From Candidatus Methylomirabilota bacterium (lineage in GTDB: Bacteria; Methylomirabilota; Methylomirabilia; Rokubacteriales; CSP1-6): 64,000 nucleotides of DNA. Under the pieces are notes generated by a model. The model was not told the DNA's origin. It did not search any database and saw only the letters and a list, made by a program, of their open reading frames with translations. This document shows, in pieces, positions 42,085-62,669 of the stretch. The stretch spans positions 1 to 64,000 of the forward strand of contig JBKPAK010000156.1 of NCBI GenBank assembly GCA_046726415.1, read 5' to 3'. The translations under genes were made by a program, and so were the position numbers. Position 1 is the stretch's first letter, and each line of letters opens with the position of its first letter.

Positions 42085-42948
42085 ATGGCGAAACCTGTCT
42101 CGAGCAAGCGCGAACCCTCGTCGCGAGGCCCAGCTCTCGTTGAGCCCGTAGCACGCCCGGACTGGTTGATCGTGCTGCTGGCCGTAGCCGGTCTGATCGT
42201 CAGCGGCTATCTGGGCTGGTTGAAGGTCCGCGGGGGAGGCGCGCTCCTCTGCGAGGCCGGCGGCGGCTGCGATATCGTCCAGGCCAGTCGCTATGCCACG
42301 ATCCTCGGCGTGCCCACCGCTCTGTGGGGTAGTGCCTTCTATGCCGCCATCGGCACGCTCGCCGGCCTCGGCCTGTCGGCCCAACGCTGGCTCTGGGCGT
42401 TCCTGCTCGCAGCGGGGGGCGCCGCCTTCTCTCTCTATCTGACCGTCATCGCGCTGCTGGTCATCGGCGCCGCCTGTCCGTACTGCCTGGCGTCGGCGTC
42501 GATCGCGGTCGCCCTGGTGGCGGTGATCCTGTGGCGCCGTCCGACAGTCAGGGGTCGGAGGTCGCCACTGCGTTGGTCGCGCATTCTCCCGCTCGGAGGC
42601 GTGGCCGCGCTGATCGCGGTCGTCGGCGGGGCGGCGGTCTTTGCCTCCTACCCCGGGGGGGCCTCGGCCTATCAAACAGGTCTCGCCCGTCACTTGGCCA
42701 AGATCAACGGTGTGATGTATGGCGCCTACTGGTGACCCGCCTGCAAAGAGCAAAAGGCCCGGTTCGGGCCGGCCGCCAGCGAAGTACCCTACGTGGAGTG
42801 CGACGCGCGGAGTATCGGCGCACGGCCCGACCTCTGCAACGCCCTCGGCGTCCGCGCGTACCCCACCTGGATCATCGGCAACCAGCGCCTTGAGGGCGTG
42901 TTGACCTTGGAGGAGCTGGCCCGACTGTCCGGCTTCCCGGGAACATGA
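42085..42948 (+). CDS. VKOR-thioredoxin fusion, predicted selenoprotein (U217, WUPAC)
   Basis: VKOR motifs CEAGGGC and CPYC. YGAYW-TGA(42733-35)-PACKEQK continues in frame through VECD..LC..YPTW to TGA 42946-48. Hairpin at 42756-42770. Confidence 0.88.
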
Positions 42949-43017
42949 GCAACGCACGCGGGATCGTGGGGCTAGGGAAACGTCGGTGAATCGCCAGTTT
43001 CCGTCCGTTATGCTGGT

Positions 43018-43659
43018 ATGCCAGTAGAGACGTCCACCGTCGTCGCCAGTGCTGGCCGCCAGGCCATTGCCCGGCGTGGTCGCCTCCTGCAGTACCTCAC
43101 CATCGGATGGAACACCGCGGAGTGCGCGGTGGCCCTGCTCGCCGGTCTCTGGGCGGGCAGCATCGCCCTCGTCGGCTTCGGCGTCGACTCCGCGATCGAG
43201 GTCACCAGCAGCTTGGCCGCGCTGTGGCGGCTGTGGAGCGACGCCAACGAGAAGCGCCGCGAGGCCGCCGAGCGTCGCGCGCTTCGCGTGATCGGCGTGT
43301 GCTTCCTGCTGCTCGCCGTCTACATCCTCTACGAGGCAGTCGTCGCGCTGGCAGTTCGACGCGAGCCCGAGGCGAGCCCAATCGGGATCGCGCTGGCGGC
43401 GCTGTCACTCGTGGTGATGCCACTGCTCGCCAGGGCCAAGCGCCGGGTAACTCGTCAGCTCGACAGCGGCGCTCTCGAAGCCGAAACGCGCCAGACCCTG
43501 ATCTGCGCCGCCCTTTCCGCCATCCTCCTAGTCGGCTTGGGGCTACACGCCGCGCTCGGCTGGTGGTGGGCCGACCCCACGGCAGCCATCGCCATGGCTC
43601 CGCTCATCGCTCGCGAGGGCTGGGAGGCCGTTCGCGGTCGGACCTGCTGCCACTCATAG
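43018..43659 (+). CDS. Cation efflux (CDF-like) membrane protein
   Basis: GSIALVGFGVDSAIE and GWWWADP motifs, C-terminal CCHS. Confidence 0.85.
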   Translation: MPVETSTVVASAGRQAIARRGRLLQYLTIGWNTAECAVALLAGLWAGSIALVGFGVDSAIEVTSSLAALWRLWSDANEKRREAAERRALRVIGVCFLLLAVYILYEAVVALAVRREPEASPIGIALAALSLVVMPLLARAKRRVTRQLDSGALEAETRQTLICAALSAILLVGLGLHAALGWWWADPTAAIAMAPLIAREGWEAVRGRTCCHS

Positions 43660-43723
43660 CGCCCAACGGTCAGACTGCTGCTACGTAGCGCCGACCGCAT
43701 CGCGCCTCGCAGGGCCAACCGCC

Positions 43724-44314
43724 TCAAACTAGCCAACGCAGGAGGCGCCCAAGGCGGTGACCGTCGGCGGCCGCGCGGTCGAGACGCGGGGCAATGAACG
43801 AGTCAAGGCCAAAGCTGCGGCCGGCATCCGTGAAGAGGAAGATAACGGGCAGCATAATCAGCATGACGTAGGTCCACACCCACTCGTGGGGCACGCTCAC
43901 GATCCCGATCGTGATGTTGAGCGCCATGCCGATGGCTACCAGCGAGCCGAGGCGGGTGAAGAGGCCGAGCATGAGGGTGGCGCCGATGAACGTCTCGGTG
44001 ATGACCGTCATCCAGCCGAAAAACGTCCAGTTCGGAATCATCACGTTTACCAGGAAATCCCTGTAGGCCTGTACCGTCGGATACAGGACCTCCTGCTGCA
44101 CCCAGTACCAGAGCCCGCCCCCCGACTTTCGCCCGAAGTCGTCTGACGGCACCTTCCACTTCGATTGCCGCCACCAGAGCACGCCGTAGAGGATCCGGAC
44201 GAGCCCAACCGGCCAAAGGGGAGCCGTCGCCGAAAGCCACCCTACTCCGGCGCCCTCTCGACTCTGTGCGATCCCTCTTACTTCCGCTGGCAATTCCTTC
44301 ATGGCCTGCTCCAT
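43724..44314 (-). CDS. DoxX / TQO small-subunit-like membrane protein
   Basis: VRILYG.LW, ETFIG..LMLGLFTR and AGRSFGLD motifs. Confidence 0.8.
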   Translation of the reverse strand: MEQAMKELPAEVRGIAQSREGAGVGWLSATAPLWPVGLVRILYGVLWWRQSKWKVPSDDFGRKSGGGLWYWVQQEVLYPTVQAYRDFLVNVMIPNWTFFGWMTVITETFIGATLMLGLFTRLGSLVAIGMALNITIGIVSVPHEWVWTYVMLIMLPVIFLFTDAGRSFGLDSFIAPRLDRAAADGHRLGRLLRWLV

Positions 44315-44406
44315 CGTCGCCTCCCGAGGACCAGAGTGGCCCTCGCGTTCGACGATTCGGACACGCGCGCCAGGCCTCGCGGTTCAGCGCCTGGCGAGTC
44401 GTCCTC

Positions 44407-45081
44407 CTAAATGCCGCCTCGATAGAGGTCGCGCACGAAGGCGAAGGTACGTGCGGGCCCACCTCCGACCGCCGTCATCTCAGCGTGCAGGCGCCGGAGG
44501 TCGGGCTCGGTGTCGACGTCGAACCACATGGGAAGAAGATGGATCCGAAGTTTCCGGTCACGCGCCCGCTCGACGGTCAGCGGCAGCACCCGCTCCGTGC
44601 TCCAAGGCATGTCTTCGAACAGCGCGGGCTGGGGAGCGCGCAGCCCGATGAGATAGTAGCCGCCGTCCTCGCATGGTCCCAGCACCACGTCGGCATTCCC
44701 GCCCTCGAGTCGCCTGGCAGCTTCGGCGACGTAACTCATTGGCAAGGTTGGACTGTCGCTGTCGATGGCAATCGCGCCACAGTGGCCCTCCTCGAGCAAA
44801 CCGGTGAGCAGATTCGAGAGCCGCTCGCCGAGATCGGATCCCATTTGCGCGAGGAGGCGGAAAGTGGGCGGCGCCACCGTCGCCAGGAACTCCCTGCCCT
44901 CGGGAGGCGTGAACGCGATCACCGGCCGAACTTCGGACAGCGCGCCGAGCGCGTCGAGCCGGTCGAGGAGAAAGCAGCGGTAGAGCTCGGTGGCGCGCTC
45001 GGGCGTCAGCGCCGCGTGCAGCCGCGACTTGACCGGCCCGAGTCCAGGCGACTTGGCCATGACCGCCACCGCCGGCCTCAC
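44407..45081 (-). CDS. DUF2064 / CofC-like transferase (TIGR04282-type)
   Basis: AKSPGLGPVKSRL, DLGERL, SDSPTL, LGPCEDGGYYLIG and DVDTEPDL motifs. Confidence 0.88.
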   Translation of the reverse strand: MRPAVAVMAKSPGLGPVKSRLHAALTPERATELYRCFLLDRLDALGALSEVRPVIAFTPPEGREFLATVAPPTFRLLAQMGSDLGERLSNLLTGLLEEGHCGAIAIDSDSPTLPMSYVAEAARRLEGGNADVVLGPCEDGGYYLIGLRAPQPALFEDMPWSTERVLPLTVERARDRKLRIHLLPMWFDVDTEPDLRRLHAEMTAVGGGPARTFAFVRDLYRGGI

Positions 45082-45099
45082 GGCGCTAGGAACCCGCCA

Positions 45100-46092
45100 C
45101 TACAGACTCCACTTGACGCCGCAGCCCCGACACGGCTCCGGCGGCGTGGCGGTCTGGACGTCCTCGCGAAATGTCAGGTACCGATCGCCCCACCAGATCT
45201 CGGCCAGCGACTTGCGGAGGAGGTTGCCCAGGATGATCCCGGCGTAGTGCTCGGTAATCCATGGGGCGATGCAGCATGGCAGCACGTTGCCGTGCACGGT
45301 CACGTAGACCAGGGTCCACGGACGCCGGCATGCGCTCCAGGGCCGGTCGTCGTGGGAAGGCTCTAGGCTGACCTCGGGCGTCGTCGCCCCCGAAGCCGAG
45401 AACACAATCCCCGCCTCTCGCGCCGCCGCCTGGGTCGTCTGGATGAGCGCGTTCTCGCGCTGATGGAGCCGGCCGTGAAGTGACTGGGCCTCGGTAGCGA
45501 GCCCGAGGCCGTTGTAGACGAGCCGCTGGAGGTAGATGGCTCGGGCGCCCATGCGCTCGGCAAGGATCACGAGGCCGGGGATCTCCTCGATATTCTCGCG
45601 AAGCCCCGTGAACCACAAAGAGACAGTGGGCGCGGTGGCCCGGCCGTGCCCGAGAGCGACGAACCGTGCGACGTTGGCGATGACCTTGTCGAAAGCGTCC
45701 ACACCTCGGATCCGCGCGTAGGTCTCCCGCGTGCTCGCATCGAGCGAGACGCGCAACTCGTCCAGGCCCGCCTCGAGCAACTCCTGGGCGATGCGCTCCG
45801 ATAGGGTGATTGCGTTCGAGTTGAAGAGCACGACGGCACCGCGGTCCTTGAGGTGGGCTACCATGCGAGGAAGATCGCGATTGAGGAGCGGCTCACCGAT
45901 GCCGTGCAGCAGCACCCGCTCCAGGAGCGGGAACTGGTCGACCATGGCCCGGAACTCGTCCCACCCGAGGTCCTTGGCGGGCTCGCGGCCCCCGAAGGTG
46001 AGGATGCAGGTCTCGCAGAGCGAGTTGCAGCGGCTCGTCGTCTCGAGATAGAGCGAGCGCGGCAGCGCTGGGCGGAGGGTCAGGGCACTCAC
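45100..46092 (-). CDS. Radical SAM protein with SPASM/Twitch domain
   Basis: CNSLCETC and GIGEPLL motifs, C-terminal CRRPW..GNVLPCC..LGNL..CRGC. Confidence 0.92.
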   Translation of the reverse strand: MSALTLRPALPRSLYLETTSRCNSLCETCILTFGGREPAKDLGWDEFRAMVDQFPLLERVLLHGIGEPLLNRDLPRMVAHLKDRGAVVLFNSNAITLSERIAQELLEAGLDELRVSLDASTRETYARIRGVDAFDKVIANVARFVALGHGRATAPTVSLWFTGLRENIEEIPGLVILAERMGARAIYLQRLVYNGLGLATEAQSLHGRLHQRENALIQTTQAAAREAGIVFSASGATTPEVSLEPSHDDRPWSACRRPWTLVYVTVHGNVLPCCIAPWITEHYAGIILGNLLRKSLAEIWWGDRYLTFREDVQTATPPEPCRGCGVKWSL

Positions 46093-46766
46093 GAGACCTC
46101 GCGGGCGGAGCGGATCGCCACCGTCATGAATGCCCAGCCGGCCCGCACGCTGCCGGTCAGCGTGCCCGCGACCTTCGAACGCCCCCCCAGCCGCGGGGCG
46201 TGCGTCACGGGCACCTCGACGATGCGCGCGCGCAGGGCGGCCGCCTTGACGACCATCTCCACGGGCCAGCCGAAGCCGCGATCGCGCATGCCGAGGCGCC
46301 GCAGAACGTCGACATGGATCGCGCGCAGCGGGCCGATGTCACTGAGGCGCACGCGAAAGCGCCACGCCACGAACGCCGCCACCAGCCGCGTCCCCAGCAG
46401 CGCGTGCAGCGGATGATGGCCATCGAAGCGCCGGGCCCCGAGCACGAAGTCTGCACACCCCTTCTCGAGGGGCGCCAGCACGCGCGAGATTTCCTCCGGA
46501 AGCTGGCTGCCATCGCCGTCGAGGAACACGGCCACATCGGTCTCCCCTCCGAGCGCGGTCACCCCAGCCCAGCACGCTGAGCGGTAGCCGCGGCGTGGCT
46601 CGCTCACCACGCGCGCTCCAGCCCGCGCCGCCTCGCTGGCCGTCGCGTCGGCGGACCCGTTGTCCACCACGATGATCTCGCTGATGCAGCTGCGCGGCAC
46701 CCGCCGCACGAGCCCCCCAATCACCTCGGCCTCATCGAGCGCCGGAATGATGAGAGCCGCCCTCAT
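46089..46766 (-). CDS. Glycosyltransferase family 2
   Basis: IIPALDE, VVDNGS and FLDGDGS motifs. Confidence 0.92.
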   Translation of the reverse strand: MRAALIIPALDEAEVIGGLVRRVPRSCISEIIVVDNGSADATASEAARAGARVVSEPRRGYRSACWAGVTALGGETDVAVFLDGDGSQLPEEISRVLAPLEKGCADFVLGARRFDGHHPLHALLGTRLVAAFVAWRFRVRLSDIGPLRAIHVDVLRRLGMRDRGFGWPVEMVVKAAALRARIVEVPVTHAPRLGGRSKVAGTLTGSVRAGWAFMTVAIRSAREVS

Positions 46767-46821
46767 CGGTCTCGGGCTCCCCCGGCGCGGCCCAGGCGCG
46801 CGGCGGTCATGGCCGTTTCCG

Positions 46822-47829: not shown

Positions 47830-47832
47830 CCG

Positions 47833-50375: not shown

Positions 50376-51404
50376 CTATTCGAGCTTGCGGTAGTGCAGG
50401 CGCACCAGCTGGGCCGGGCTCTTGTCAGTCTGGATGAGACCTGCGTCCATCCGGTCCTTGAACGCCCGCTCCAGATTCTCCGCCACGTCCACCTTGCGAT
50501 CGAAACCGAGGGCGGCCGCGGAACTGGCGGCGGCCTGGACGGGCAGAGCGGCAGGGTAGTAGCCGCCCGCTTGCGTCGTGATCACCGCCCGTGCCGGATT
50601 CTCGGCGACCCACTGCTTGGCCCGCCGGAATGCACGGACGATGGCCGCCGCCTTGTCCGGGTGACGGTCGACGATCTCGCGCTTGATGCCGAAGAAGCAG
50701 CAGTACTCCCGGTTGTACGGCGCCTGGTATGTCTGCGAGAACAGCACTTTGGCAATCTTCCTCTCGCTCAGGATGACCTGCTGGGGCTCGGTCACGCCGA
50801 CCGCGTCGAACTTGCGCGCCTTGAACCCCTCCGCCACGTAGTCCCCGATTCGGGGCAGGGCGTCCCACGGCATCGGCCTCAGCGTGACATCCTTCGTCGG
50901 ATCGACGCCGGAGGTCTTGAGCTCGGTGTTGACGAAGGTGAGGCCCTGCACGACGCGGAAGGGGGCAACCCACCACGGATTCATCTCGACCGTTTTGCCC
51001 TTGAGATCCGCCGCTGACGCGAGCGTGGAATCGATCGGGACCATCACGTCCATGCAGCCGAAGTTCATCCCCTCGACGATGTAGTGCCCGATCTTGCCGG
51101 CCGCCATGTGATGGAGTTGGTCGACGTCAATGAACCCGAAGTCCGCCTCGGTCAGCCCCTTCTCCGTCTTGACGTAGAGGAAATTCGTCTTGCCCTGCTC
51201 GACCGCGCCTCGGGTGTCGACGGGGAGGCCCTGAACCGTCAACCCCTCCTCGGCGAAGAAGCCCTTCACGAGGGCCGCGTACAGCGGCAGCATTCAGGTA
51301 CCCGCGCCATACCCCAGGGTGTATTTCTCCTGCGCGGATGCCGGGGCCATCCCCGCAGAGATGGCCAGGACGAGGAGTGTCGCGCAAACGCCCAACTGCT
51401 TCAT
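50376..51404 (-). CDS. ABC substrate-binding protein (NMT1/SsuA-like), predicted selenoprotein (U37)
   Basis: AAGGAG RBS and ATGA overlap with the upstream gene. Signal peptide, then YTLGYGAGT-TGA(51294-96)-MLPLYAALVKGFFAEEGL in frame. Later FGC and YCC motifs. Confidence 0.8.
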
Positions 51405-52162
51405 GGCCGACTCCTTGACTGAAGGAGCTTGGTCACTGCGGTGTGAGTGGCCAGGTCGTCCCAGTCACGCGCTCCGGTCTCGCGGACCACGACGTCGCCG
51501 CCACGGTCAATCAGATACGTGGTCGGCAAGCCAAGCACTCGGTAGGCACTTGCCGTGGACCACTCGGGGTCGAGCACGATGGGGAACGTCACCTTCACCT
51601 CCTTCAGGAACGCCTCCACCCCCGCCGTGGACAACACGTCGAGGTTGATGGCGACCACCTCGAGGCCTTGATCCTTGTGGCGCTGGTACAGTCGCTCGAT
51701 CGCGGGCATCTCGGTGCGGCAAGGAATGCACCAAGTCGCCCAGAAGTTCAGGACAACCGCCTTGCCCCGCTGGCCCGACAGGCTGAGGGCCACGCCGTCC
51801 AGCGAGCGGAGAGTGAAGTCAGGAGCCGGAAACCGCGCCGGTCCCACCGCGGGCGGGCTCCCCATGCGCTCCAGGGCGACGATCAGCCACTCGGGGCCAC
51901 GCGATTGGAGGGTGAATCGAACGACATCGCCCGGCTGCAGATCCCCGAGCAGGCTCGGCCGCTCTAAGCGAAACGCCATGCGCATGGCCGGCATGACGCC
52001 GCGGATCGGCCCATGATCGAGGGTGATGCTCCCGCTCGAACCGTCGACGGCCACGACGGTCCCTTCTCCCTGGGCACTGGGCTCGGCGCTGGCAAGACCC
52101 GGCCGGGCAAGCAACAGGACGACAAGCACGAGGGCCGCGAGCAAGACCCGATCCCTGGGCAT
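51401..52162 (-). CDS. CusF-like copper-binding domain fused to a TlpA/ResA thioredoxin (Cys form, WCIPC)
   Basis: LDHGPI..MPAMRMAF and NFWATWCIPC motifs. Confidence 0.88.
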   Translation of the reverse strand: MPRDRVLLAALVLVVLLLARPGLASAEPSAQGEGTVVAVDGSSGSITLDHGPIRGVMPAMRMAFRLERPSLLGDLQPGDVVRFTLQSRGPEWLIVALERMGSPPAVGPARFPAPDFTLRSLDGVALSLSGQRGKAVVLNFWATWCIPCRTEMPAIERLYQRHKDQGLEVVAINLDVLSTAGVEAFLKEVKVTFPIVLDPEWSTASAYRVLGLPTTYLIDRGGDVVVRETGARDWDDLATHTAVTKLLQSRSRP

Positions 52163-52249: not shown

Positions 52250-52996
52250 TCACAGCCGGATCTGGTGCGAGGCCTCCCAGCGCTGTCCTTCGTTGTTGAT
52301 GAACACGACGCGCAACGTGCCGCCGCGCGTGACCCGGAGGGGAAATCGGATCAGGGGATTGGCGCTCACGGCCGAGGTCATCTGGAACTCGCTGACCCTC
52401 TGGTCATCGAAGAAGACTAACGTCTGCTTCACGAAGAACTCCGGCGCCTCGCGGACATGCTTGCCGCCCTTCAGGATCAGCCCCGTGTAGGAGTTGTGGT
52501 CGACTTTGGCGCGCACCTGCACGATCTCGCCCGGCCTGATCGATTCCGGAAAGCGGATCCGAGGGTTGCCGAGACGGTCGCGGCTCATGTCCGGGGGACC
52601 GGCGCACCCGCCTTCCGTCACCCTGATCTCTTTGGTCGCGATGAAGCGCCCGTGTCGCGAGCATTCGGCCGTGACCTTGAGAACACCGCCAGCCCCGGAG
52701 CGCATATGAAACGCGACCCCAGCCTGTCCGTTGGCGGGCGTGAAGAGATACGTGCCCTTGTTCGGGACTGGATCGTTGTCCAGCCTGATCTCGATCGATC
52801 GGATGAAGTGGTCGGGCTCCATCGGGTGGTTGACCGAGACTTGGAGGGGCACGGCCCCCGGATCTTCCGCCAGGGTCGGCGCGTCGATCACGGCACGATG
52901 CTCGCGCTCCAGAGCCGGCTGGGCGCGCGGGCGACCTGGTGCCAGGAGCGTGAGAGCTCCCCCGAGGAGCAACACGCGGCGGGAGCGATCCATCAC
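52250..52996 (-). CDS. SoxY-SoxZ fusion sulfur-carrier-like protein
   Basis: RRVLLL Tat-like signal, LAEDPGAVP..NPVP-like SoxY region with TEGGC, then SoxZ-like HNSYTG..SAVSANP. Confidence 0.8.
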   Translation of the reverse strand: MMDRSRRVLLLGGALTLLAPGRPRAQPALEREHRAVIDAPTLAEDPGAVPLQVSVNHPMEPDHFIRSIEIRLDNDPVPNKGTYLFTPANGQAGVAFHMRSGAGGVLKVTAECSRHGRFIATKEIRVTEGGCAGPPDMSRDRLGNPRIRFPESIRPGEIVQVRAKVDHNSYTGLILKGGKHVREAPEFFVKQTLVFFDDQRVSEFQMTSAVSANPLIRFPLRVTRGGTLRVVFINNEGQRWEASHQIRL

Positions 52997-53123: not shown

Positions 53124-53705
53124 TCAGTCCAGGGCGGCCAGCGTCACCTTGACAACGTCTTCGAGGACGGCGCGATCGGGCGATGTCTTGGCCATGACGG
53201 AGAGCCCCTGAGCACTGTTGGTCAAGAACCGCGCCAGGGCCCGCGGATTGCGCGTGGGGTCGATCTCGCCCGCCTTCTGGGCGCGGACCACCGCGCGATG
53301 GAAGGCGGTCTCGATCTTCGCCAGCACCGCGCCCACCCTGCTGGCCGTCCCCCGATCGCGCGAGGCCAACTCCGCGGTCGAATTCGTCACCAGGCAGCCG
53401 CGAGGGCGTCCAGGCTCCAAGGCCAGGTCGACCTTGAGCCGGAAGAACCGGCGGATGGCGCCCTTCCCCGACCCCTGGCCCTCCAGAGTTGCCAGCAGCT
53501 TGGCGGTGACCACGCGGTCGTAGTGGTCGATGGCCGCGAAGAAGAGCGCCCGCTTGTCCCCGAACGTGTCGTAGAGACTGCCGCGCTGAATGCCCATCCG
53601 CGCCACGAGGTGCTCGATCGACGTAGCCTCGTACCCTCGGGACCAGAAGACCTGCATGGCCCGGTCGAGGACCACGTCGCGATCGAACTCCTTGGGGCGA
53701 CCCAC
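53124..53705 (-). CDS. TetR-family regulator (NemR/ComR-like, conserved RGCL)
   Basis: GRPKEFD..FWSRGYEATS..GSLYDTFGDK and RGCLVTN motifs. GTG start. Confidence 0.92.
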   Translation of the reverse strand: MGRPKEFDRDVVLDRAMQVFWSRGYEATSIEHLVARMGIQRGSLYDTFGDKRALFFAAIDHYDRVVTAKLLATLEGQGSGKGAIRRFFRLKVDLALEPGRPRGCLVTNSTAELASRDRGTASRVGAVLAKIETAFHRAVVRAQKAGEIDPTRNPRALARFLTNSAQGLSVMAKTSPDRAVLEDVVKVTLAALD

Positions 53706-53726
53706 GCCCCATCGAGTACCAGTTTC

Positions 53727-53744
53727 GGAACGGTCGGTCAAGAA
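53727..53744 (-). promoter_or_regulatory. Putative TetR operator 1 (TTCTTGACCGACCGTTCC on the minus strand)
   Basis: Matches 53880-53897 at 16 of 18 positions in inverted orientation. Lies just upstream of tetR. Confidence 0.6.
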
Positions 53745-53879
53745 AATGTGATACGGTCCGCCCGTTCGCGCGCCCGCGATGGCCACCACCGCCGGCCGGG
53801 GGGAGGTTCACCGATCATCCGATCAGCACGATGGTCGTGATCTGCGCGATTCTGCGTCGCGCGCTGGGCTGAGGCGCCA

Positions 53880-54159: not shown

Positions 54160-54182
54160 ATCCACTCACCCGGGAGGGTTCA

Positions 54183-54845
54183 ATGGCACTTCAGGAAAAG
54201 CTCGACGCGATGCGGGAAATGTCCAAGACGCGGATCCCCCCTGAAGCCCGGGCGGTCATGGAGCGCAGCATCGCCGACCTCCGGGCCTCCGGGATCATGA
54301 ACCGGGTCGCCCGGGTCGGGCAAACCGCTCCGCCCTTCACGCTGCCCAACGCCGACGGGCAGTCGGTCAGCCTGACGGAATTGACGGCCCGCGGCCCGGT
54401 CGTGCTGTCGTTCTACCGCGGCCGCTGGTGACCGTACTGCAACGCAGAGCTGGAGGCTCTGCAGCAGACCCTGCCCGAGATCACCGCCGCCGGCGCCACC
54501 CTCGCCGTCATCTCGCCCCAGGTGGCGCGCACGCCCCGCGAGACGGAGGAGCCCAAGCCGCTGTCGTTCGAGCTCCTGCGCGACTTCGGCAATAAGGTCG
54601 CCGAGGCGTATGGCCTGGTCTTCACCTTGCCCGACGACCTGCGCGCGATCTACCTCAAGTTCGGCATCGACCTGGCCCTGGGTAACGGTGATGGCACCTG
54701 GCGGCTCCCCGTCCCCGCCCGGTTCGTGATCGATGGCCAGGGCATCATCCGCGATGTCGACGCCGACCCCGACTACACCCGGCGCTCAGAGCCGGCCCGG
54801 ACCGTGGAGATCCTCCGCGGCCTGCCTGGAAAGGAGCGAGCATGA
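54183..54845 (+). CDS. Peroxiredoxin-like AhpC/TSA family, predicted selenoprotein (U83, FYRGRWUPYC)
   Basis: In-frame TGA 54429-31 at the Cys of FYRGxWCPYC. The frame continues to LPVPARFVID..DYT.R. Hairpin at 54444-54462. Confidence 0.92.
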
Positions 54846-55366
54846 GCACCGTGCCCGATGGGCTGAACCCCAACATCCAGACCCGCGAGATCGTGTTCGA
54901 TGCCGACGTCAACCTGGTCACGCCGTTTCTCAAGCTCGCCACGGTCAGCCGGGGCGGCGCCGGCCACATGACCTTCGCCTCCGACGAGGGACCCACCCTC
55001 GGCGGGCTGGGCTCGGCGCCCACGCCCCTCATGTACTTCAGTGCCGCCCTCGCGTTCTGACTCATGACCCAGGTGTCCCGGTACGGGCACATGCTGAAGG
55101 TCACGGTGAACGGGATGCGGATGCGGGTGACGGCGCGCTACCGGGTCGACGGCTCGGTACTGAACGACACCATCCAGGGCCAGATGCTGGGCGCCGAGAC
55201 CACCTTGGAGATCGACTCGCCGGACCCCCCGGAGCGCGTGGCCCGGGTCGTGCGCAACGCCGAGCGCGGCTGCTTCGTCATGCAGGCGCTCCAGAAGCCG
55301 GTGCCGGTCACCGGCCGCACCTTGCTGAACGGTGCGCCCCTGGAGGCGGCCACCGCTGTACCCTGA
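54842..55366 (+). CDS. OsmC/Ohr-like protein, predicted selenoprotein (U73)
   Basis: DEG..LGG.GSAPTPLMYFSAALAF-TGA(55058-60)-LMTQ, with second Cys in AERGCFV. Two track ORFs join in frame. Hairpin at 55073-55090. Confidence 0.88.
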
Positions 55367-55435
55367 GCGCGTCGGGCGCCGGCCAGGCGGAGGCCTTCCC
55401 GCAGCGCGCAATCGTGGAACCTCGAGGAGGAGAGT

Positions 55436-55963
55436 GTGGCGGGATTGACCGACCGTGCGGAATGGGACCAGCGGCGACACCTGGACAAGATCCACCCTCT
55501 TCCAGATTTCGGCCCGACCCCGTTCGTGCCCGGCCCCCCGCTCGGAGAGCGGCGGGTCGCCATTGTTACCACCGCCGGAATTCACCCGCGCGGCGTCCGC
55601 CCGTTCGAGGTGGGCTCGACGGATTACCGAGTCATTCCCGGCGACACGCCGCCCGGCAATCTGGTGATGAGCCATACCTCGGTCAATTTCGACCGCACGG
55701 GCTTCCAGGAGGACGTGAACGTCGTCTTTCCCCTCGAACGACTGCGCGAGCTGCACAAGGACGGCGTGGTGGGCGCGATCGCCGGTCTCCACTATTCATT
55801 CATGGGCGCCTCGCCCATCCAGGCCTTAGAGCCGAATGCGCGTAAGCTGGCCGGCCTGATGAAAAACGAGGGGGTCGACGCGGTTCTCCTCGTTCCCGTC
55901 TGACCGAACTGCACGTGTGCCGTCGGCGCACTCGGGCACTTCATCGAACGAGAGGGTGTGCCG
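55436..55963 (+). CDS. PrdB/GrdB-like reductase selenoprotein B (U156, VUPNC), C-terminally truncated
   Basis: GAGGAGG RBS, AIVTTAG, D.NVVFPLERL, YSFMG and VDAVLLVPV-TGA(55901-03)-PNC..IEREGVP. Similarity stops near 55963, though the frame stays open to 56170. Confidence 0.8.
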
Positions 55964-55965
55964 TC

Positions 55966-56846
55966 ATGCTCGCCCTCGCCACTGTCCTGTTCGCCCCCAT
56001 GCTGGCCTCTGGCGAGGCCTTCGGCCGCCCGGTGGCCGGCGCGGTCGCGCCAGCCAGCCTGTCGGTGCTGGTTGGCGCCTTCGTGTTCGCGATCGGGATG
56101 CAGCTCGGCGGGGGCTGCGGGTCAGGCACGCTCTACCACGTGGGCGTGGGGAGCAGCAGGCTCGTTCTGACGCTGCTCTTCTTCGTGGTGGGCGCAGTGC
56201 TCGCCACCTTCCACATGCCCTTCTGGACGGCGCTGCCCTCGCTCGGAGAGATCTCGCTTGGGGAGCGCCTCGGCTCGGGAACCGCCGTCGCCCTCCGGCT
56301 CGCCGTCTGTGGACTCCTGGCCGTCGCGACACTGTGGGTGGATCGGCGGCGCGGGCTGCCGGCTTCACCGAGGACGTCCGCCCCGCCCGGTGGATGGTGG
56401 CGCATCCTTCAGGGCCCATGGTCGCTGGTGGCTGGAGGTGTCCTGCTCGCCCTGCTCAACCTCCTCACGCTTCTGGTCGCCGGTCACCCCTGGACGATCA
56501 CGTGGGCGTTCGCCCTGTGGGGCGGAAAGGCCCTAGCCCTGAGCGGGTACGATCTCTCGGCGATTCCGTTCTGGACGGAGCCATTCCAGCAGCACGCGCT
56601 GGCCGCCCCGGTGCTCGCTGACGCAACCTCGGTCATGGACATCGGTCTCGTGCTCGGCGCCTTCCTCGGGGGCGGACTGGCCGGCCGCGTCGCGCCCAAA
56701 CCCCGCGTGCCGCTCTCCCGCCTGGCCGCCTCGGTCGTCGGAGGGCTGATTCCACGAGCCTCCATGGCTGGTTCTGGGGTGTAGCCGCTCTCGTGGGGAC
56801 GCCCATCGGCGTGCACCTGCGCCGTCGCTTTGGCCTCGACGATTGA
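55966..56846 (+). pseudogene. YeeE/YedE sulfur(/selenium) transporter, N-terminally truncated, with internal deletion and frameshift
   Basis: FAIGMQLGGGCGSGTL motif present. Near 56750, VVGGL jumps frame to STSLHGWFW..RFGLDD*, and the second GC motif segment is missing. Confidence 0.75.
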
Positions 56847-56888
56847 CATGGAGATGGCGGCGTTCCGGCGCTCTTCGGGCCGTCGGCG

Positions 56889-56914: not shown

Positions 56915-56954
56915 ATTCCTGGCAGGAGAAGTTCGCGCTGGCAGGAGGAGAATC

Positions 56955-57212
56955 ATGCTGCAACGGCTCGTGCTCATCATCTCGGTATCGCTCGCCGCGG
57001 CCGTGCTCGTCGTCGCGCCGGGTGTCTGGCGGCCGAGCCGTGCGCCGGAACTGACAGACCCTCAGATGGTGGCGACGCCCGTAATCCTCGGGTGCATCCC
57101 GTTGCCCGCGGGCGCGGCCGGGGAGGAGCAACCGCAATCGCAAGGCGAGAGCTGCCTCGAACGCACGCATGCCGACTTCCGGACCGATCGAATCGCCATC
57201 CTCGAGTGCTGA
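56955..57212 (+). CDS. Small membrane-anchored/exported hypothetical protein with three Cys
   Basis: AGGAGGAG RBS, hydrophobic N-terminus, ECF promoter upstream. Confidence 0.55.
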   Translation: MLQRLVLIISVSLAAAVLVVAPGVWRPSRAPELTDPQMVATPVILGCIPLPAGAAGEEQPQSQGESCLERTHADFRTDRIAILEC

Positions 57213-57223
57213 CGGTGCTGCCG

Positions 57224-57684: not shown

Positions 57685-57696
57685 GCTGTCCTCCTC

Positions 57697-58906
57697 TCAA
57701 GTCAGGGGTAGCTCGCGCCGGAAGACCTCGAACGCCGACCGGCGTGTCGCCTCCATGGCCTGCCGGATCTCCTGCGTGCCGGCCCCCGCGCCGGATGCCA
57801 GCAGCGACTCGAAGAAGCGCGTGTAGAAGTGGTCGGGGTACACGGTCACGGTCGCTCGCAGGCGCAGGTCAGGACGATCGATGCGGTGGCGGTAGGCGAA
57901 CTCACTCTTACCGCCCGGCGGGATGCGGGTGTCGAAAATCTCCCCGGAGAGGTCCAGAACCACCTCGCGGGCGATCCGGTGCTCCTGCACGCTGCCTGAC
58001 ACGACCGTGCCCGAGCGGTCCACGAGCGCGACGCGAAAGACGACGTGAGGCGTCACGTACGTCGGAAAGTGGTGGCCCACCCCGATGCTTCGGATCTGGA
58101 CGGCGGCGCGCACCTCGTCTCCGGGCTGATAGCGGCGCCGATCGGTCGTCACCGCGACCTCGATGCCCGCCTTGACCATCTCTGGGTCACGGATCCCCCG
58201 CCACAGATGGCGGCGGTCGGGCATGTGAAGTCTTGGCACTGTTGTCCTCGCCGGGCGGCCGGGCTCGCCCTCCACTCCTCGTACGTGTTCTCGAGCGGCT
58301 TGCCGTTGAGGGTCAGGTCGTCCGGGCCGAACTGGTGGCACGAGGAACAGAACTCGGACCGGCGGAACTCGGGGACCCGCACGGCGCCGGCGTGCGGCAC
58401 CGGTCGGCCCGGCGAATTGTTGACGGTCCCATCCCGGCGGGGCGGGCCGTATCGCCGGTTGTTGCGGACGTGGCACCCCGCACACACGAGCCCTTGCTGG
58501 TACAGGCGGCGGTCGAAGTCCGGGTTCGCCACCAGCGTGTCGCCGAGGGTTCGCACCGGGTGCTGCTCGGTGAGGGGCGCGTGGCAGGTCAGGCACAGCC
58601 GGGCCGTCGCGGGATCCGTCCGCCGCATCTCGGCGAGCTGCCCACTGACCCCCGGCCCTATGCTGCGCGCGTGCAGGGTTGTCTTCCAGTCGGCGAGCTG
58701 CACGGGGTGTCAGATCCCGCAGCTCGCCGGATCCAGGGAGCGTTCCAAGGGCTGAAGTGCAAGGGCGCCGGGCCCTGAGGGGGCACAGGCAACCGCCAGT
58801 GGCGCGCCAGAAACTCGCGATCGCGTTCGGTTACCTGCGCTCCCTCCAGCCCCACCCCGGCGGCGAGGAGCGCGATGCCCAGGCAGGCCAATGCCCAGCG
58901 TGCCAT
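57697..58906 (-). pseudogene. Pentaheme cytochrome c (c554-like), with two frameshifts and an in-frame TGA
   Basis: Heme motifs CGI*H, CLTCH, CAGCH, CSSCH and CQD(fs)HM. 1-nt deletions near 58750 and 58229. Confidence 0.8.
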
Positions 58907-58916
58907 CCCGTTGAAA

Positions 58917-58942
58917 AACACCGTGCGAGAGGCCCCTATTCC
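58917..58942 (-). promoter_or_regulatory. SigR/SigH-type ECF promoter GGAAT-N18-GTT for the cytochrome gene
   Basis: Minus strand reads GGAAT-AGGGGCCTCTCGCACGGT-GTT. Confidence 0.6.
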
Positions 58943-58973
58943 GGCGGGCCGGCAGGCCGATCAGGGCCCCCGA

Positions 58974-58999
58974 GGAATATCGAGACGGCCTCGACGGTT
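58974..58999 (+). promoter_or_regulatory. SigR/SigH-type autoregulatory ECF promoter GGAAT-N18-GTT
   Basis: GGAAT at 58974-78 and GTT at 58997-99, directly upstream of the sigma gene. Confidence 0.65.
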
Positions 59000-59002
59000 G
59001 AA

Positions 59003-59030
59003 TAGGTTGACAGTCGTAGGTTGACAGTCG
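59003..59030. repeat. Perfect 14-bp tandem duplication TAGGTTGACAGTCG x2
   Basis: Copies at 59003-16 and 59017-30, spanning the TTG start of the sigma gene. Confidence 0.85.
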
Positions 59031-59623
59031 CGACGGGAGAGCAGTCGATCCTCTGGAAGAGCCGGTCCGAGAGCGCGGACGAGTTCGAGCAGGTGGCCCT
59101 CGTCCACCTGGACGCGCTCTACCAGACCGCGCTGCGGTTGACACATAACCGGGCGGAGGCCGAGGACCTCGTGCAGGAGGCGTACCTGCGCGCCTTCCGG
59201 AGCTTCCACCGGTTCAATCCCGGCACCAATTGCCGGGCGTGGCTGTTCACGATCATGAGAAATGTGTTCCTCAACCAGCTGCGGCATGCGGGGCGGGAGG
59301 TTCTGGACGCTGACATGACGATGCTCGATACGGCCACGGAGAGCGCGACGACCGCCCAGCCCCTGCGCGAAAACCCCGAGGAGGAGTTCCTCCAGACGGT
59401 GGTACACGGCGATGTCGACCGCGCCCTCCGCTCCTTGCCGCTGGTCTTTCGCGAGGCCATTGTCTTGGCGGATCTCGAGGGCTTGAGCTACAAGGAGGTT
59501 GCCGAGGTCGTCGGCTGCCCCATCGGTACCGTTATGTCGCGCCTATCCCGCGGCCGGCACCTGCTCCGCCAGGCGCTGGGGCAGCTAGCTCGCGAGCACG
59601 GATACGTGGAGAAGCCGGAATGA
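59021..59623 (+). CDS. ECF sigma factor (SigR/SigH-like)
   Basis: AEDLVQEAYLRA..F.PGTNCRAWLFTIMRN and GTVMSRLSRGR motifs. Confidence 0.92.
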   Translation: MTVATGEQSILWKSRSESADEFEQVALVHLDALYQTALRLTHNRAEAEDLVQEAYLRAFRSFHRFNPGTNCRAWLFTIMRNVFLNQLRHAGREVLDADMTMLDTATESATTAQPLRENPEEEFLQTVVHGDVDRALRSLPLVFREAIVLADLEGLSYKEVAEVVGCPIGTVMSRLSRGRHLLRQALGQLAREHGYVEKPE

Positions 59624-60402
59624 TGTGTACGGAGGTCGAAACCCGGCTGCATCCCTACGTGGACGGCGAGCTCCCGGTCAGCGAGACGGCGGCTATCGAT
59701 GCTCACCTGGCCGGGTGCCCGGAGTGCGCCATCCTCGCCCGCCGCGAGCGAGACTTCCGCACCCTCCTGCGCCGGCAGCCGCGAGAACGGGCCCCCGAGG
59801 AGTTCCGCCGCAGGCTGGCGGCGCGCATCCGGCGTGAGGCTCGGCGCAAGTCGGCCCGGCCGTGGGTCCTGATCCCGGCGCTGGCGGCAGCGGCCGCTGT
59901 CCTGGCCATCGTGATGCTGCCGGCCCGGCAAACCTCCGCCCCCCTGATGGTCGATCTGGTCGACAAGCACATGGCCTACGCGCAGCTCGATCGACCCGCG
60001 GAGCTCGTGTCCGGTGACCCGGCCGAGGTGGCGACCTGGTTCCTCCAGCGAGCGGGACTCCGCGTGACGGTGCCGGACTACTCGCCCGCGGGGATTCGCC
60101 TGGTCGGCGGCCGGCTCGCCGAGGCGCACGAACGCAAGGCCGCCTATCTGATCTACGAGAAAGGCAGCGTCCTGCTCTCGGTGTTCATTGTCCCGACGGG
60201 TGATGAGACCGCGGCCCTTCGCGGCGAGGACGTCAGCTTCCGCGGGCACACCTACGTGAAGAGCGAGCGGAAGGGATTCCGGACGGTCGCGTGGACGGAG
60301 AACCAGGTGCTCTTCGGCCTGGTCTCCAGCCTCGACTATGAGGCTCTTCTCGAATGCGCGGACCGCCTGCGCTATGCGCGGACGCGCCAAGCTCGGTTGT
60401 AG
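59620..60402 (+). CDS. Zinc-finger (HxxxCxxC) transmembrane anti-sigma factor
   Basis: YVDGEL..HLAGCPEC, a TM segment, LVGGRL. Confidence 0.9.
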   Translation: MMCTEVETRLHPYVDGELPVSETAAIDAHLAGCPECAILARRERDFRTLLRRQPRERAPEEFRRRLAARIRREARRKSARPWVLIPALAAAAAVLAIVMLPARQTSAPLMVDLVDKHMAYAQLDRPAELVSGDPAEVATWFLQRAGLRVTVPDYSPAGIRLVGGRLAEAHERKAAYLIYEKGSVLLSVFIVPTGDETAALRGEDVSFRGHTYVKSERKGFRTVAWTENQVLFGLVSSLDYEALLECADRLRYARTRQARL

Positions 60403-60406
60403 GGCG

Positions 60407-61504
60407 ATGGTACCGAACAGAATGGTCTCGCTCCTCGCGGGCGGATTGCTCGTGGCGGTTGCCGCGAGCGAGGCGGTCGAGCTCCGCACCGACACCTCGA
60501 AGGCCCTCGTGCCGCTCGACGAAATCATCTCGGGAGGCCCTCCACCCGACGGCATTCCGGCCATCGACCGGCCGCGCTTCGTCAGCCCGGACGAGGCCTC
60601 GGCGTGGCTGGTGGCCAAGGAGCCGGTGCTTGCGCTCGGGGCCAAGGGCGACGCGCGCGCCTACCCGCTGCAGATCCTCATGTGGCATGAGATCGTCAAC
60701 GATGTCGTGGGTGGTCTCCCCGTCACCGTGACCTTCTGCCCGCTCTGTAACTCCGGCATTGTCTTCGAGCGGGTGGTGAACGGGGCAACGCTCGACTTCG
60801 GGACCTCCGGCAAGCTCTACAAGAGCGACCTCGTGATGTACGACCGTCAGAGCCACTCCCTGTGGTCGCAGATGGAGGGCCGGGCCATCGTCGGCACGCT
60901 CGCGGGAACCCAGCTCAGGCTGGTGCCCGCGAACACCCTGTCCTTCGAGGAGTGGCGCTCCGCCCACCCCGCCGGGAAGGTGCTCTCCCGCGAGACCGGT
61001 CACATGCGCAGTTACGGCGTCAACCCCTACGAGGCGTACGACCAGCCCCAGCTCCGGCCCTTCCTCTTTCACGGGCGCCCGGATCCTCGCCGGCCGCCCA
61101 AGGAGCGCGTCGTGGGCGTGAAGAGCGGGGACGTCGCCAGAGCCTATCCGTGGCCCGTCATCGTCGAACGCAAGGTCGTTCACGATCGGCTCGGCGACGT
61201 CGCGCTCGTCATCCTCTACCAACCGGGAGCGTTGTCGGCACTCGATGCGCACGAAATCAAGCGGTCTCGCGCCGTGGGTGCGACCGCCGTGTTCAGTCCG
61301 TTGGTGGAGGGACGTGCGTTGAGCTTCGAGGCGATCCCCGAGGGCTTCCGCGACCGGGAAACCGGGTCGATATGGAACCTGCTCGGCCACGCCCGCAAAG
61401 GCGCCCTGGCGGGCCGGCGTCTGAGCCCCATCCCTCACGTCGACGCCTTCTGGTTCGCCTGGGCGGCCTTCAACCCGTCGACGTCCATTTACGGCGACCC
61501 ATGA
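60407..61504 (+). CDS. DUF3179-family exported protein (Cys form, FCPLC)
   Basis: GGPPPDGIPAID, HEIVND, FGTSGKLY and FWFAW motifs. Confidence 0.9.
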   Translation: MVPNRMVSLLAGGLLVAVAASEAVELRTDTSKALVPLDEIISGGPPPDGIPAIDRPRFVSPDEASAWLVAKEPVLALGAKGDARAYPLQILMWHEIVNDVVGGLPVTVTFCPLCNSGIVFERVVNGATLDFGTSGKLYKSDLVMYDRQSHSLWSQMEGRAIVGTLAGTQLRLVPANTLSFEEWRSAHPAGKVLSRETGHMRSYGVNPYEAYDQPQLRPFLFHGRPDPRRPPKERVVGVKSGDVARAYPWPVIVERKVVHDRLGDVALVILYQPGALSALDAHEIKRSRAVGATAVFSPLVEGRALSFEAIPEGFRDRETGSIWNLLGHARKGALAGRRLSPIPHVDAFWFAWAAFNPSTSIYGDP

Positions 61505-62097
61505 CGCCGGCGAGCGAGCTGCTGGCCCTCCTCGAAGCGCTGGAGCGCAAGGGCACCAGCGTCATCGAGCTCGTGCGCGATGGCCAGCCCCAGGAGCCGT
61601 GGCGGCTCTACCCAGCAGAGAGCGGGATCTTCGATCGGCGCACGCGCTACCAGTTCTACTACCACAGCCACGGCGCCGCCCTCGAGGCCGGGCACTTCCA
61701 TACCGTGCGCTTGTTCGCCGATCGGACGGTGCACCTGGTTGCGATCTCGAGGGCGCCCGACGGCTGGCCGCAGGCGTTGTTCACGCTCAACCTGTGGGCG
61801 ATCGGCGATGCCTACGAGAGCGCCGCCGCCCTCAAGCACTACGCCACGGGCTTCCGGCTCCGCAAACAGGTCGGGCCTTTGCCGCTCGTCCGCTTCGTCA
61901 ACCTCGTCTTCCAGGCATTCTTGCCGGAGATCGAGCGACTTCAGGAGGAGAAAATCGAGACGCTTGCCCAACACCGTGCGTCCCATCCGGACCACAATGT
62001 CTTCGAGGACCGTTCGCTCGAGATCTTGAGTCGGGTGGCGATCGACGTGCGGGCGCGCGCTGGCAGCGTGACCCTGGCCACGTGCAGTTCCCGATGA
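61501..62097 (+). CDS. Conserved-looking hypothetical protein (His-rich YYHSH..EAGHFH)
   Basis: ATGA overlaps on both sides, QFYYHSH and LFTLNLW motifs. Confidence 0.75.
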   Translation: MTPASELLALLEALERKGTSVIELVRDGQPQEPWRLYPAESGIFDRRTRYQFYYHSHGAALEAGHFHTVRLFADRTVHLVAISRAPDGWPQALFTLNLWAIGDAYESAAALKHYATGFRLRKQVGPLPLVRFVNLVFQAFLPEIERLQEEKIETLAQHRASHPDHNVFEDRSLEILSRVAIDVRARAGSVTLATCSSR

Positions 62098-62669
62098 AGA
62101 GCGCGCTGGCGATGTCCCGCGCCGCCCGTCAAACTCTGTTCGCCCTGCTGCTGGCTAGTCTCTCGCTCGCCGCGCCCGGCGCCGCCGTGAACCTCGATCA
62201 GCTCATGCGGGACTTCCGCGTGACACCGGTGGGGTTGAAGCTCGCGCCAACCTTCACCCTGGCGACTCTTGGCGGAAAGCCAGCCACGCTCACCGCACAG
62301 CGCGGCCGCCCCGTCCTGCTCTACTTCTGGGCCACCTGGTGACCACACTGCACGAGGGAGTTACCCTCGTCCATCGAGCAGCTGCACCGCGATCTCGTGG
62401 CCCGCGGCCTCTCCATCTTGGCGGTGAACATCCAGGAGAGCCCGTCGACGGTGGCCGCGTGGGCCCATGAGCGCAACGTCACCGTGCCGATCCTGCTCGA
62501 CCCCGACGGGGAGGTGACGCGCCAGTACGGCGTGATCGCAACCCCGACGACGTTTCTCATCGACCGCGAGGGGCGGCTGCTCGGCCGCGTCGTGGGACCG
62601 CGCGCCTGGGCCTCGCCCGAGGGCAAGGCGTTGATCGCCGCTCTCCTCGAGGCTCCATCGCGCCCGTGA
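62094..62669 (+). CDS. TlpA/ResA-like thioredoxin, predicted selenoprotein (U83, FWATWUPHC)
   Basis: In-frame TGA 62340-42. The frame continues to TPTTFLIDREG..GPRAW. Perfect 7-bp hairpin at 62352-62370. Confidence 0.92.

Follow-up and report, generated by a model that had tools for sequence, protein, structure and literature searches.

Six in-frame TGA codons lie within about 20 kb of the genome of a soil bacterium, in a stretch of 64,000 nucleotides (nt) referred to here as the window (G000:C156:1-64000, 68% G+C), and each divides an open reading frame (ORF) whose two halves make up one domain. We consider it highly probable that the six TGAs are selenocysteine (Sec, U) codons served by a full bacterial Sec pathway, and that the genes are a local cluster of independent modules in which one gene, G5, is most likely a relic. 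The source, G000, is a metagenome-assembled genome (MAG) made up of 352 contigs with a total of 7.6 Mb; its completeness is 98% and its contamination 4.66%. The genes are numbered G1 to G6 (genomes have three digits) and are listed with their Sec codons and the length of open frame, in amino acids (aa), before and after each codon.

G1, 42085..42948, plus strand: VKOR and thioredoxin-like (Trx) fusion, stop TGA at 42946-42948; Sec codon 42733-42735 (WUPAC), at the position of the first Cys in the CxxC of the Trx part; 241 aa before, 70 after.
G2, 50376..51404, minus strand: periplasmic SsuA/NMT1-fold binding protein, Pfam NMT1_2 56.2 bits, stop TAG; Sec codon 51296-51294 (GTU); 56 aa before, 305 after.
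G3, 54183..54845, plus strand: Prx-like (AhpC/TSA) UxxC protein, AhpC-TSA 98.2 bits (cut-off 26) across the Sec, stop TGA; Sec codon 54429-54431 (WUPYC); 196 aa before, 137 after.
G4, 54842..55366, plus strand: OsmC-like UxxT protein, start overlapping the G3 stop, stop TGA; Sec codon 55058-55060 (AFU); 122 aa before, 101 after.
G5, 55436..55978, plus strand: 5' part of a GrdB/PrdB-like UxxC gene, homology ending near 55960-55978, frame open to 56170; Sec codon 55901-55903 (VUPNC); 178 aa before, 88 after.
G6, 62094..62669, plus strand: exported TlpA/ResA-like redoxin, UxxC, AhpC-TSA 103.3 and Redoxin 97.2 bits, stop TGA; Sec codon 62340-62342 (WUPHC); 305 aa before, 108 after.

The in-frame TGA was confirmed at all six sites, with the positions and peptide contexts given in an earlier note on this DNA, where 51294 is the lowest coordinate of the minus-strand codon 51296-51294. 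The note was mistaken about the gene at 51294, which codes for an SsuA/NMT1-fold binding protein and not for a thioredoxin-fold, Prx, OsmC or GrdB protein, and missed the truncation of the gene at 55901. Pfam domains span the TGA in G3, G4 and G6, as do the Trx part of G1 and the substrate-binding protein domain of G2. Five of the genes look intact, and for these Sec decoding is very likely; G5 looks cut short. The real stop is TGA in five of the six genes (TAG in G2) and G3 and G4 overlap by ATGA, so TGA also functions as a stop here.

Independent sequence was available as near-identical contigs from three soil metagenomes, for which part of the rows of differences from the window were listed. 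A contig from one of these (X1 record 1) covers 42700-43903 and its 6 differences all lie elsewhere than the TGA at 42733, which is thereby confirmed; another (X1 record 7) shows 0 differences over 61459-62380 and so confirms the TGA at 62340. The possibility raised earlier, that reads might carry TGC or TGT at these sites, is thus excluded for 42733 and 62340, and at the other four sites there is no such variant among the difference rows listed.

The genome encodes all components of the bacterial Sec-decoding trait, each above its curated cut-off. The selA gene (591.9 bits, cut-off 267.9) adjoins selB (374.2 bits, cut-off 242.25) on contig C313, and the gene for tRNA-Sec (71 bits, cut-off 47; called as tRNA-SeC with anticodon TCA by ARAGORN) lies 1 kb from the pair, such that all three fall within 4.3 kb. 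The selD gene (335.6 bits) is on contig C223 and has an in-frame TGA of its own. Lack of Sec machinery, which would have spoken against the reading of the earlier note, therefore does not apply. In the expected pathway SelD would make selenophosphate, SelA would turn Ser-tRNA(Sec) into Sec-tRNA(Sec) and SelB would bring the latter to a UGA with a small hairpin just behind it, the bacterial selenocysteine insertion sequence (SECIS). The second UGA of the same mRNAs, which has no such hairpin, would end translation. In the products, Sec would replace an attacking or ligand Cys.

Each read-through product was used to query 40 genomes, ranging from the same genus to the same order, and the returned loci were aligned. 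For G1 and G2, further homologues (the best 120 matches each) were taken from a large protein database; these are named Methylomirabilota, Rokubacteria or Rokuibacteriota, so G000 fits the lineage reported to be rich in selenoproteins. Among the 66 homologues compared, 55 have TGA in the same column, nine have Cys and two do not cover it. Conservation of the TGA in related genomes and its interchange with Cys, both anticipated in the earlier note, are thus observed, and Cys is the sole other residue in that column, as expected for Sec codons at Cys positions. The TGA is found in 11/11 homologues of G3 (51-86% identity; 10/10 without G011, a genome flagged as unpublished that supplies one G3 and one G6 row) and in 13/13 of G5, with Cys in none of either. 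For G6 the counts are 12 TGA and one Cys of 13 (11 and one of 12 without G011), for G1 ten TGA and three Cys of 13, and for G4 eight TGA and two Cys of ten, both Cys rows being distant (27-29% identity).

The G2 homologues from the genomes comprise one with TGA, three with Cys and two that do not reach the column. In alignment A1, Cys is in the Sec column of all 19 full-length database homologues that cover it (44-52% identity); two other rows, P0027 and P0078, have a truncated or aberrant N-terminus. A third TGA form of G2, with the codon in the same column, was found on a Chloroflexota-labelled contig (L104). The database also bears out the expectation that standard annotation truncates such genes. 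Of the best 120 G2 homologues, 62 begin at a Met directly 3' of the TGA (290-310 aa) and are annotation artefacts of Sec forms; seven of the 120 G1 homologues end at ...YGA[YH]W.

A bacterial SECIS, as modelled in bSECISearch, is a hairpin shortly downstream of the UGA with a G in the apical loop. At all six sites there is a short G+C-rich hairpin with its loop starting 20-35 nt from the U and G at loop position 1 or 2, as listed below.

G1 hairpin, 42756..42770, plus strand: 6 bp, loop GUU, loop start 30 nt from the U; same offset in 10/10 TGA orthologues.
G2 hairpin, 51260..51276, minus strand: GGCCCU-CGUGA-AGGGCU; core GCCCU/AGGGC identical in 3/3 TGA forms (window, L100 and L104).
G3 hairpin, 54444..54462, plus strand: 8 bp, loop GGA; same offset in 11/11 TGA orthologues.
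G4 hairpin, 55073..55090, plus strand: present in 7/7 TGA orthologues examined.
G5 hairpin, 55915..55931, plus strand: 7 bp, loop GUC; same offset in 13/13 TGA orthologues.
G6 hairpin, 62352..62370, plus strand: 7 bp, loop AGUUA; same offset in 12/12 TGA homologues.

A rule of at least 6 bp of stem, G in the first two loop positions and a loop start 13-36 nt from the U holds at 6/6 sites and at 256 of the 1437 TGA triplets of the window (17.8%); with 5 bp, 493 of the 1437 (34%) pass. The rule was fixed after the sites had been seen and the weight is therefore placed on conservation. In the TGA forms a small hairpin 13-35 nt downstream of the codon is kept and shows compensatory changes. Of the eight Cys forms examined, seven lack it at this offset, namely those of G1 in G008 and G036, of G6 in G038 (where it is broken), of G4 in G038 and all three G2 homologues. 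In the G5 family, both sides have changed in five of seven pairs, and 99% of 98 cells are paired compared with at most 52% in slid controls; the covariation score was reached by 0/500 shuffles. In G3, both sides have changed in two of eight pairs and 100% of 88 cells are paired compared with at most 49%. The structures were derived from the same sequences, which biases these percentages over the slid versions; the compensatory pairs are independent of that bias. A scan of 40000-64000 at Rfam gathering thresholds gave 0 matches, although Rfam may hold no model for these SECIS types. Direct observations are the codons, the genes of the Sec machinery, the conserved columns and hairpins and the covariation, from which we infer actual Sec insertion and all of the biochemical roles proposed below.

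G1 (Pfam VKOR PF07884, 84.4 bits, cut-off 27.5) is a VKOR-thioredoxin fusion of the 3KP9 type. Residues 28-285 align end to end with residues 22-278 of the Synechococcus VKORC1/thioredoxin protein (3KP9, 4NV2; E 9e-40), and G1 keeps the Cys pair of the loop, the CxxC in the membrane and the Trx motif. Unlike the Synechococcus protein, G1 carries Sec where the Trx CxxC (CPHC) has its first Cys. We take this Cys to be the one that meets both substrate proteins and the VKOR loop in the electron path proposed for 3KP9, and by analogy the Sec of G1 may occupy the same contact point. The membrane VKOR and periplasmic Trx domains would act in disulfide formation. The 13 G1 loci have no neighbour gene in common. 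VKOR (PF07884, 'vitamin K') does not occur in the 119-family table or the accessible text of a recent review of prokaryotic selenoproteins (PMC13188914), 'vitamin K' does not occur in the BSepDB and deep-Sep papers, and a literature search on selenocysteine or selenoprotein with VKOR gave no relevant title. The VKOR orthologue in G001 (L073, contig C1) has TGC in the Sec column together with a GGCCCG-GUU-CGGGUC hairpin, and may represent a recent Sec-to-Cys change; this copy also appears to be split near residue 248.

G2 has a signal-peptide-like N-terminus, and its Sec is the first of four Cys positions (U37, C117, C235 and C236) that are invariant in 9/9 aligned rows, including Firmicutes homologues of 27-30% identity. 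Its structural model has a mean predicted local distance difference test score of 76.3, low around residues 31-34 in the Sec loop, and matches the folds of ThiY-like 3IX1, Thi5, CmpA, SsuA, 4NMY and DszB in the PDB. DszB, an enzyme that has this binding fold and a PDB entry titled as a C27S mutant, is found at ranks 35 and 39; the profile search with G2 did not align DszB, so no equivalence of Cys27 and Sec37 is drawn. Two further genes on the same strand precede G2.

51401..52162, minus strand: CusF-like and TlpA-like fusion, CxxC Cys form, CusF_Ec 64.9 and AhpC-TSA 98.6 bits, directly upstream of G2.
52250..52996, minus strand: SoxY-SoxZ-like fused carrier, SoxY 69.5 and SoxZ 68.6 bits, preceding the CusF-TlpA/G2 pair.

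The CusF part of the fusion keeps the His/Met motif, and the SoxYZ-like fusion scores 102 bits against TIGR04557, below the cut-off of 140. A TlpA-type redoxin lies directly upstream of the binding-protein gene in three of the five other close loci fetched (L100, L102 and L104), with a CusF domain in L102 (Bradyrhizobium) and L104; in L100 the gene runs off the end of its contig. The Pfam-scanned ORFs at 47.8-53.8 kb around G2 include no ABC permease or ATPase.

The most similar described systems are SaoX and SaoB, the substrate-binding selenoproteins of the SAO system, in which SaoX resembles 4NMY and 2X26 and its conserved Cys, including a CC pair, have been modelled as coming together at a putative metal site (bioRxiv 10.1101/2022.07.06.499078). 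G2 shares with them, as far as they are described there, the SsuA/4NMY-type fold and conserved Cys that include a CC pair, with Sec in place of one. In rare forms of SaoX the Sec is at 192 of the CC motif 191-192, the more N-terminal of its CC motifs, whereas in G2 it is at the first, N-terminal Cys. Also unlike the SAO system as described, G2 has a CusF-TlpA fusion as partner and neither an SAO operon nor an adjacent ABC permease or ATPase, and its type is found in different lineages (Rokubacteria, a Chloroflexota-labelled MAG and Bradyrhizobium). Assignment of G2 to SaoX was rejected: it scores 22.3 bits against the SaoX model NF040735 (cut-off 300; the Firmicutes homologues L105 and L113 score 50-82 bits), its neighbours are CusF-TlpA and SoxYZ-like, and its Sec is at the first Cys.

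G2 and CusF-TlpA probably provide a site for a soft metal or sulfur species that is kept reduced by TlpA, gene adjacency being the evidence that points to the TlpA-binding protein partnership. A bolder and distinctly tentative proposal is that the two make up a previously undescribed periplasmic system, in which Sec would be one of four converging Cys ligands (two of which would be Sec in G038) for a soft metal, Cu(I) for example, or for sulfur or selenium species. TlpA would reduce the site, CusF would hand over the metal, and G2 would be a chaperone or enzyme rather than an ABC import receptor. The terms PF13379, PF09084 and NMT1 do not occur in the accessible text of the review (PMC13188914), nor does 'substrate-binding' in the BSepDB and deep-Sep papers. 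The Rokubacteria orthologue L100 (G038:C5, 716-1741) has two TGAs, in the columns of Cys37 and Cys117, and is predicted to be a two-Sec binding protein; its second TGA has a 7-bp hairpin of its own that is not found in the TGC version of the window.

G3 and G4 form an overlapping cassette that is divergent from a regulatory gene.

53124..53789, minus strand: TetR-family regulator, TetR_N 52.6 bits.

G3 has the PF00578 domain and UxxC motif (WUPYC) of a Prx-like selenoprotein and reaches no NCBIfam equivalog cut-off. G4, with the motif U-L-M-T, is the only one of the six to pass a curated NCBIfam cut-off (NF041052, 'OsmC-related (seleno)protein', 164.4 bits, cut-off 95). The TetR, Prx and OsmC genes occur together in G016, in G001 and in a copy on contig C193 of the same genome, and partly in G002 and G015. 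The 1.2-kb cassette, 54160-55367, recurs with sharp ends at C257:11768-12974 (94% nt identity) and C193:23211-24399 (81%), the latter keeping the TetR gene too (75%), and OsmC fragments are found on C87 and C120. The 94% copy on C257 could represent a co-assembled strain rather than a paralogue. G3 and G4 probably act as a cytoplasmic pair in hydroperoxide detoxification under the TetR regulator. Together with G6, they share domains and motifs with the Prx-like UxxC, OsmC-like UxxT and redoxin UxxC families of the review and differ from these in nothing essential, being new members (PMC13188914, Table 1). The pairs mentioned in section 9 of the review are Prx/SelW-like and Prx-like/AhpD-like, with no Prx-like/OsmC-like pair in that section; the two overlapping selenoprotein genes with their TetR regulator are unlike either.

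G6 has an N-terminus that is signal-peptide-like by eye. It scores well above the Pfam cut-offs and below those for ResA (97.1 bits, cut-off 170) and TlpA (71.5 bits, cut-off 230), and is therefore a family-level TlpA/ResA member and not an equivalog. It closes a run of genes on the same strand.

59021-59623, plus strand: ECF sigma factor, Sigma70_r2/r4_2.
59620-60402, plus strand: zf-HC2 anti-sigma factor, its HxxxCxxC read from the translation.
60338-61504, plus strand: DUF3179 protein, Cys form CPLC, 357.7 bits.
about 61510-62097, plus strand: DUF6969 protein, 118.7 bits.

DUF3179 is upstream in one of the 13 loci homologous to G6 (G035). G6 would be an exported TlpA-like reductase, encoded downstream of the ECF sigma/anti-sigma pair. 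The DUF3179 (CPLC) and YeeE (GGGCGSG, 55966-56784) proteins are Cys forms of families listed with selenoprotein members in the review (PMC13188914). Beyond the window, at G000:C156:70295-70831 on the minus strand, is a further TlpA-like gene with TGA in WUPHC at 70612 and a hairpin, with which the dense stretch continues.

G5 requires separate treatment, since the claim of six working genes fails here: what is present is a 5' fragment that breaks off some 25 aa past the Sec codon, and the C-terminal half is missing. Its N-terminal region is homologous to that of GrdB (glycine reductase) and PrdB (D-proline reductase) and has the UxxC Sec motif, but its full-length relatives, at about 395 aa, differ in their C-terminal domain and no grdA/prdA-type neighbour is present in the window. 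Assignment as a full-length GrdB/PrdB was rejected, with 88.2 bits against TIGR04483 (cut-off 300; profile positions 26-170 of 238 covered) and 42.9 bits against TIGR01918 (cut-off 65.45). The family is matched in 24 of 41 genomes, and nearly all of the matches listed carry one TGA. The gene that follows overlaps the end of the frame.

55966..56784, plus strand: YeeE/YedE-type sulfur transporter, Cys form, Sulf_transp 118.5 bits, start at 55915 or 55966.

A tblastn search with two full-length relatives found no C-terminal part beyond 55960 in the window, and the G5/yeeE junction is gap-free in an independent contig (X2 record 14). We regard G5 as probably a relic, despite its intact Sec codon and hairpin. 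It might instead be a working short selenoprotein, or be made with YeeE as a programmed frameshift product, which we think possible but the less likely account. The 181-aa N-terminal part, the GGAGGAG Shine-Dalgarno-like sequence before the GTG at 55436, the intact Sec codon and a hairpin with compensatory pairs of its own (UA, GC, UG) are consistent with a functional gene. Against this, homology to the relatives stops at 55960, the 65 codons that follow are yeeE read in its +1 frame, the copy in G001 is broken up between three frames and a fragment of the family without TGA lies on C49.

The earlier note read the six genes as a single dense Sec-based redox module. That they are one co-ordinated island, selected as a unit and extending from cytoplasm to periplasm, is improbable. 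The clustering itself is real for this genome. In a crude genome scan, which gives relative density only and not a count of the selenoproteome, and which finds five of the six sites and misses G5, 42733-62340 is among the two densest stretches, with nine candidates (five of them real) compared with 1.27 expected per 21 kb. A further TGA redoxin follows at C156:70612, all of the products belong to thiol/selenol redox or sulfur/metal handling, and the neighbours named in the note (SoxYZ-like, YeeE, DoxD/DoxX, TetR and ECF sigma with an HxxxCxxC anti-sigma) are all present. The genes nevertheless fall into at least four groups on both strands, split by a block at 44.4-49.2 kb that stands apart from the finding.

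44407-49173, minus strand: DUF2064, radical SAM-SPASM, family-2 glycosyltransferase, second radical SAM and large membrane protein.

In the relatives the groups are scattered with no synteny between them, and the only genes kept together are TetR-Prx-OsmC and the TlpA-type redoxin with the binding protein. In G002, about 233 kb separate the VKOR orthologue from the Prx orthologue, and those of the TlpA and GrdB-like genes are on other contigs. DUF3179 accompanies only one of 13 G6 loci, no neighbour is shared by the 13 G1 loci, and the sharply bounded Prx-OsmC cassette (54160-55367) is a mobile duplicate. Several selenoprotein genes also lie close together in the SAO (six) and Tso (three) operons, but those, as described in section 9 of the review, are single conserved operons, and the window has separate units, juxtaposed and not conserved in relatives (PMC13188914). 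We therefore read the cluster not as one machine but as redox and metal modules, independent of one another, that have apparently accumulated locally in a genome rich in selenoproteins.

The scan took 178,510 TGA triplets to 2,329 loose candidates, of which 459 have a hairpin and 102 have UxxC or CxxU; 78 have a hairpin and a Cys adjacent to or within three residues of the U. The densest region is C156:42.7-62.3 kb, with the overlapping 51.3-70.6 kb, followed by C193:23.5-41.2 kb with eight candidates. The 31 loose candidates in the window comprise the five real sites, TGA 57210, the stop at 57699 and 24 others, whose peptides, judged by eye, look like off-frame or antisense reads. TGA 57210 was considered as a seventh site (ORF 56955-57212, plus strand; ...ILEC-U-RCC... 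with a 7-bp hairpin); a conserved orthologue was not found in the 40 relatives and it is therefore treated as a true stop. Elsewhere in the genome the scan returned recurrent motifs, GDUGSC on C8, C54, C80, C120 and C200, and NGCxFUxDxNA on C57, C106 and C161 with the variant NGCTYUVTHN on C15, which suggest further groups of selenoprotein paralogues.

Several points weigh against Sec decoding as set out here. The source is a MAG with 4.66% contamination, and for 51296, 54429, 55058 and 55901 the lack of a variant extends only to the difference rows listed. The hairpin rule was set post hoc, and random TGA triplets pass it at 34% (5 bp) and 18% (6 bp). The 65-nt segments after the UGA fold no better than shuffles (z +0.40, +0.33, -0.71, +0.25, +0.28 and -1.45), so the hairpin argument is one of position and conservation. 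The G2 hairpin is identical in the three TGA forms, without covariation, the G1 Cys orthologue in G001 retains the hairpin and one G4 Cys homologue carries an unrelated 5-bp hairpin. G5 is about 200 aa short of its family at the C-terminus and continues into yeeE in a different frame, and the syntenic copy in the same-genus genome G001 is split over three frames.

That the TGAs are nonsense mutations or gene splits, leaving pseudogenes or pairs of short genes, is nonetheless very improbable. The halves are indeed listed as separate proteins in databases and G5 is really damaged, but the same-column TGA is kept over orthologues of 51-92% identity in up to 13 genomes with Cys as the sole alternative. 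The downstream frame retains full domain homology, the hairpins are conserved with compensatory changes and the Sec machinery is present, and for five genes a nonsense or split reading is contradicted. Reassignment of TGA throughout the genome (as in codes 4 or 25), already dismissed in the earlier note, or assembly errors for TGC or TGT, for which the open frames alone would speak, have a negligible chance of being correct, given the TGA stops of five of the six genes and the ATGA overlap, the alignment of TGA with Cys only and never Trp or Gly, the confirmation at 42733 and 62340 by other soil metagenomes with no variant at the other four sites among the rows listed, and the same TGA in dozens of separately assembled genomes.

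One sequence difference concerns a gene outside the six. A multihaem cytochrome-like gene (57697-59000, minus strand) has three CxxCH in one frame and its C-terminal half in a neighbouring frame, with the switch near 58226. The X1 and X2 soil contigs carry an extra G behind 58226 that would join the frames, so the window has a 1-nt deletion at this gene, due either to faulty assembly or to variation between strains.

The review tabulates 119 prokaryotic selenoprotein families, among them Prx-like, OsmC-like, thiol:disulfide interchange/redoxin, GrdB, PrdB, SaoX, SaoB, DUF3179 and YeeE, and mentions in section 10 that 63 selenoprotein genes are predicted in one Methylomirabilota MAG (PMC13188914, 2026). 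By that table, four of the six families are catalogued; they are also ordinary for the lineage. The MAG with 63 genes reportedly stems from Deng et al. 2026 (Cell Rep). By the parts of the review available, the VKOR-Trx(Sec) and the four-Cys binding protein (Sec) belong to families known in their Cys form whose Sec form is apparently uncatalogued, though Deng et al. 2026 or supplements may list them. Seven queries gave at least 23 TGA-interrupted matches in G000, which, with the 63-gene MAG, means that the rarity implied by the earlier note was overstated (PMC13188914, section 10).

Sec recoding and selenoprotein-rich Methylomirabilota are known, and the cluster adds members, not a principle. 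TGA-truncated copies hidden in databases mean that family alignments and functional inferences are made without the key residue, and the frequent Sec/Cys swaps among close orthologues offer a natural series for what Sec gains over Cys. With the two uncatalogued types, the use of selenium reaches disulfide formation in the envelope and probably the handling of metals. If the periplasmic system proposed for G2 and CusF-TlpA is real, then together with VKOR-Trx(Sec) it would give selenium a place in the machinery with which a major soil phylum forms disulfides and handles metals in its envelope.

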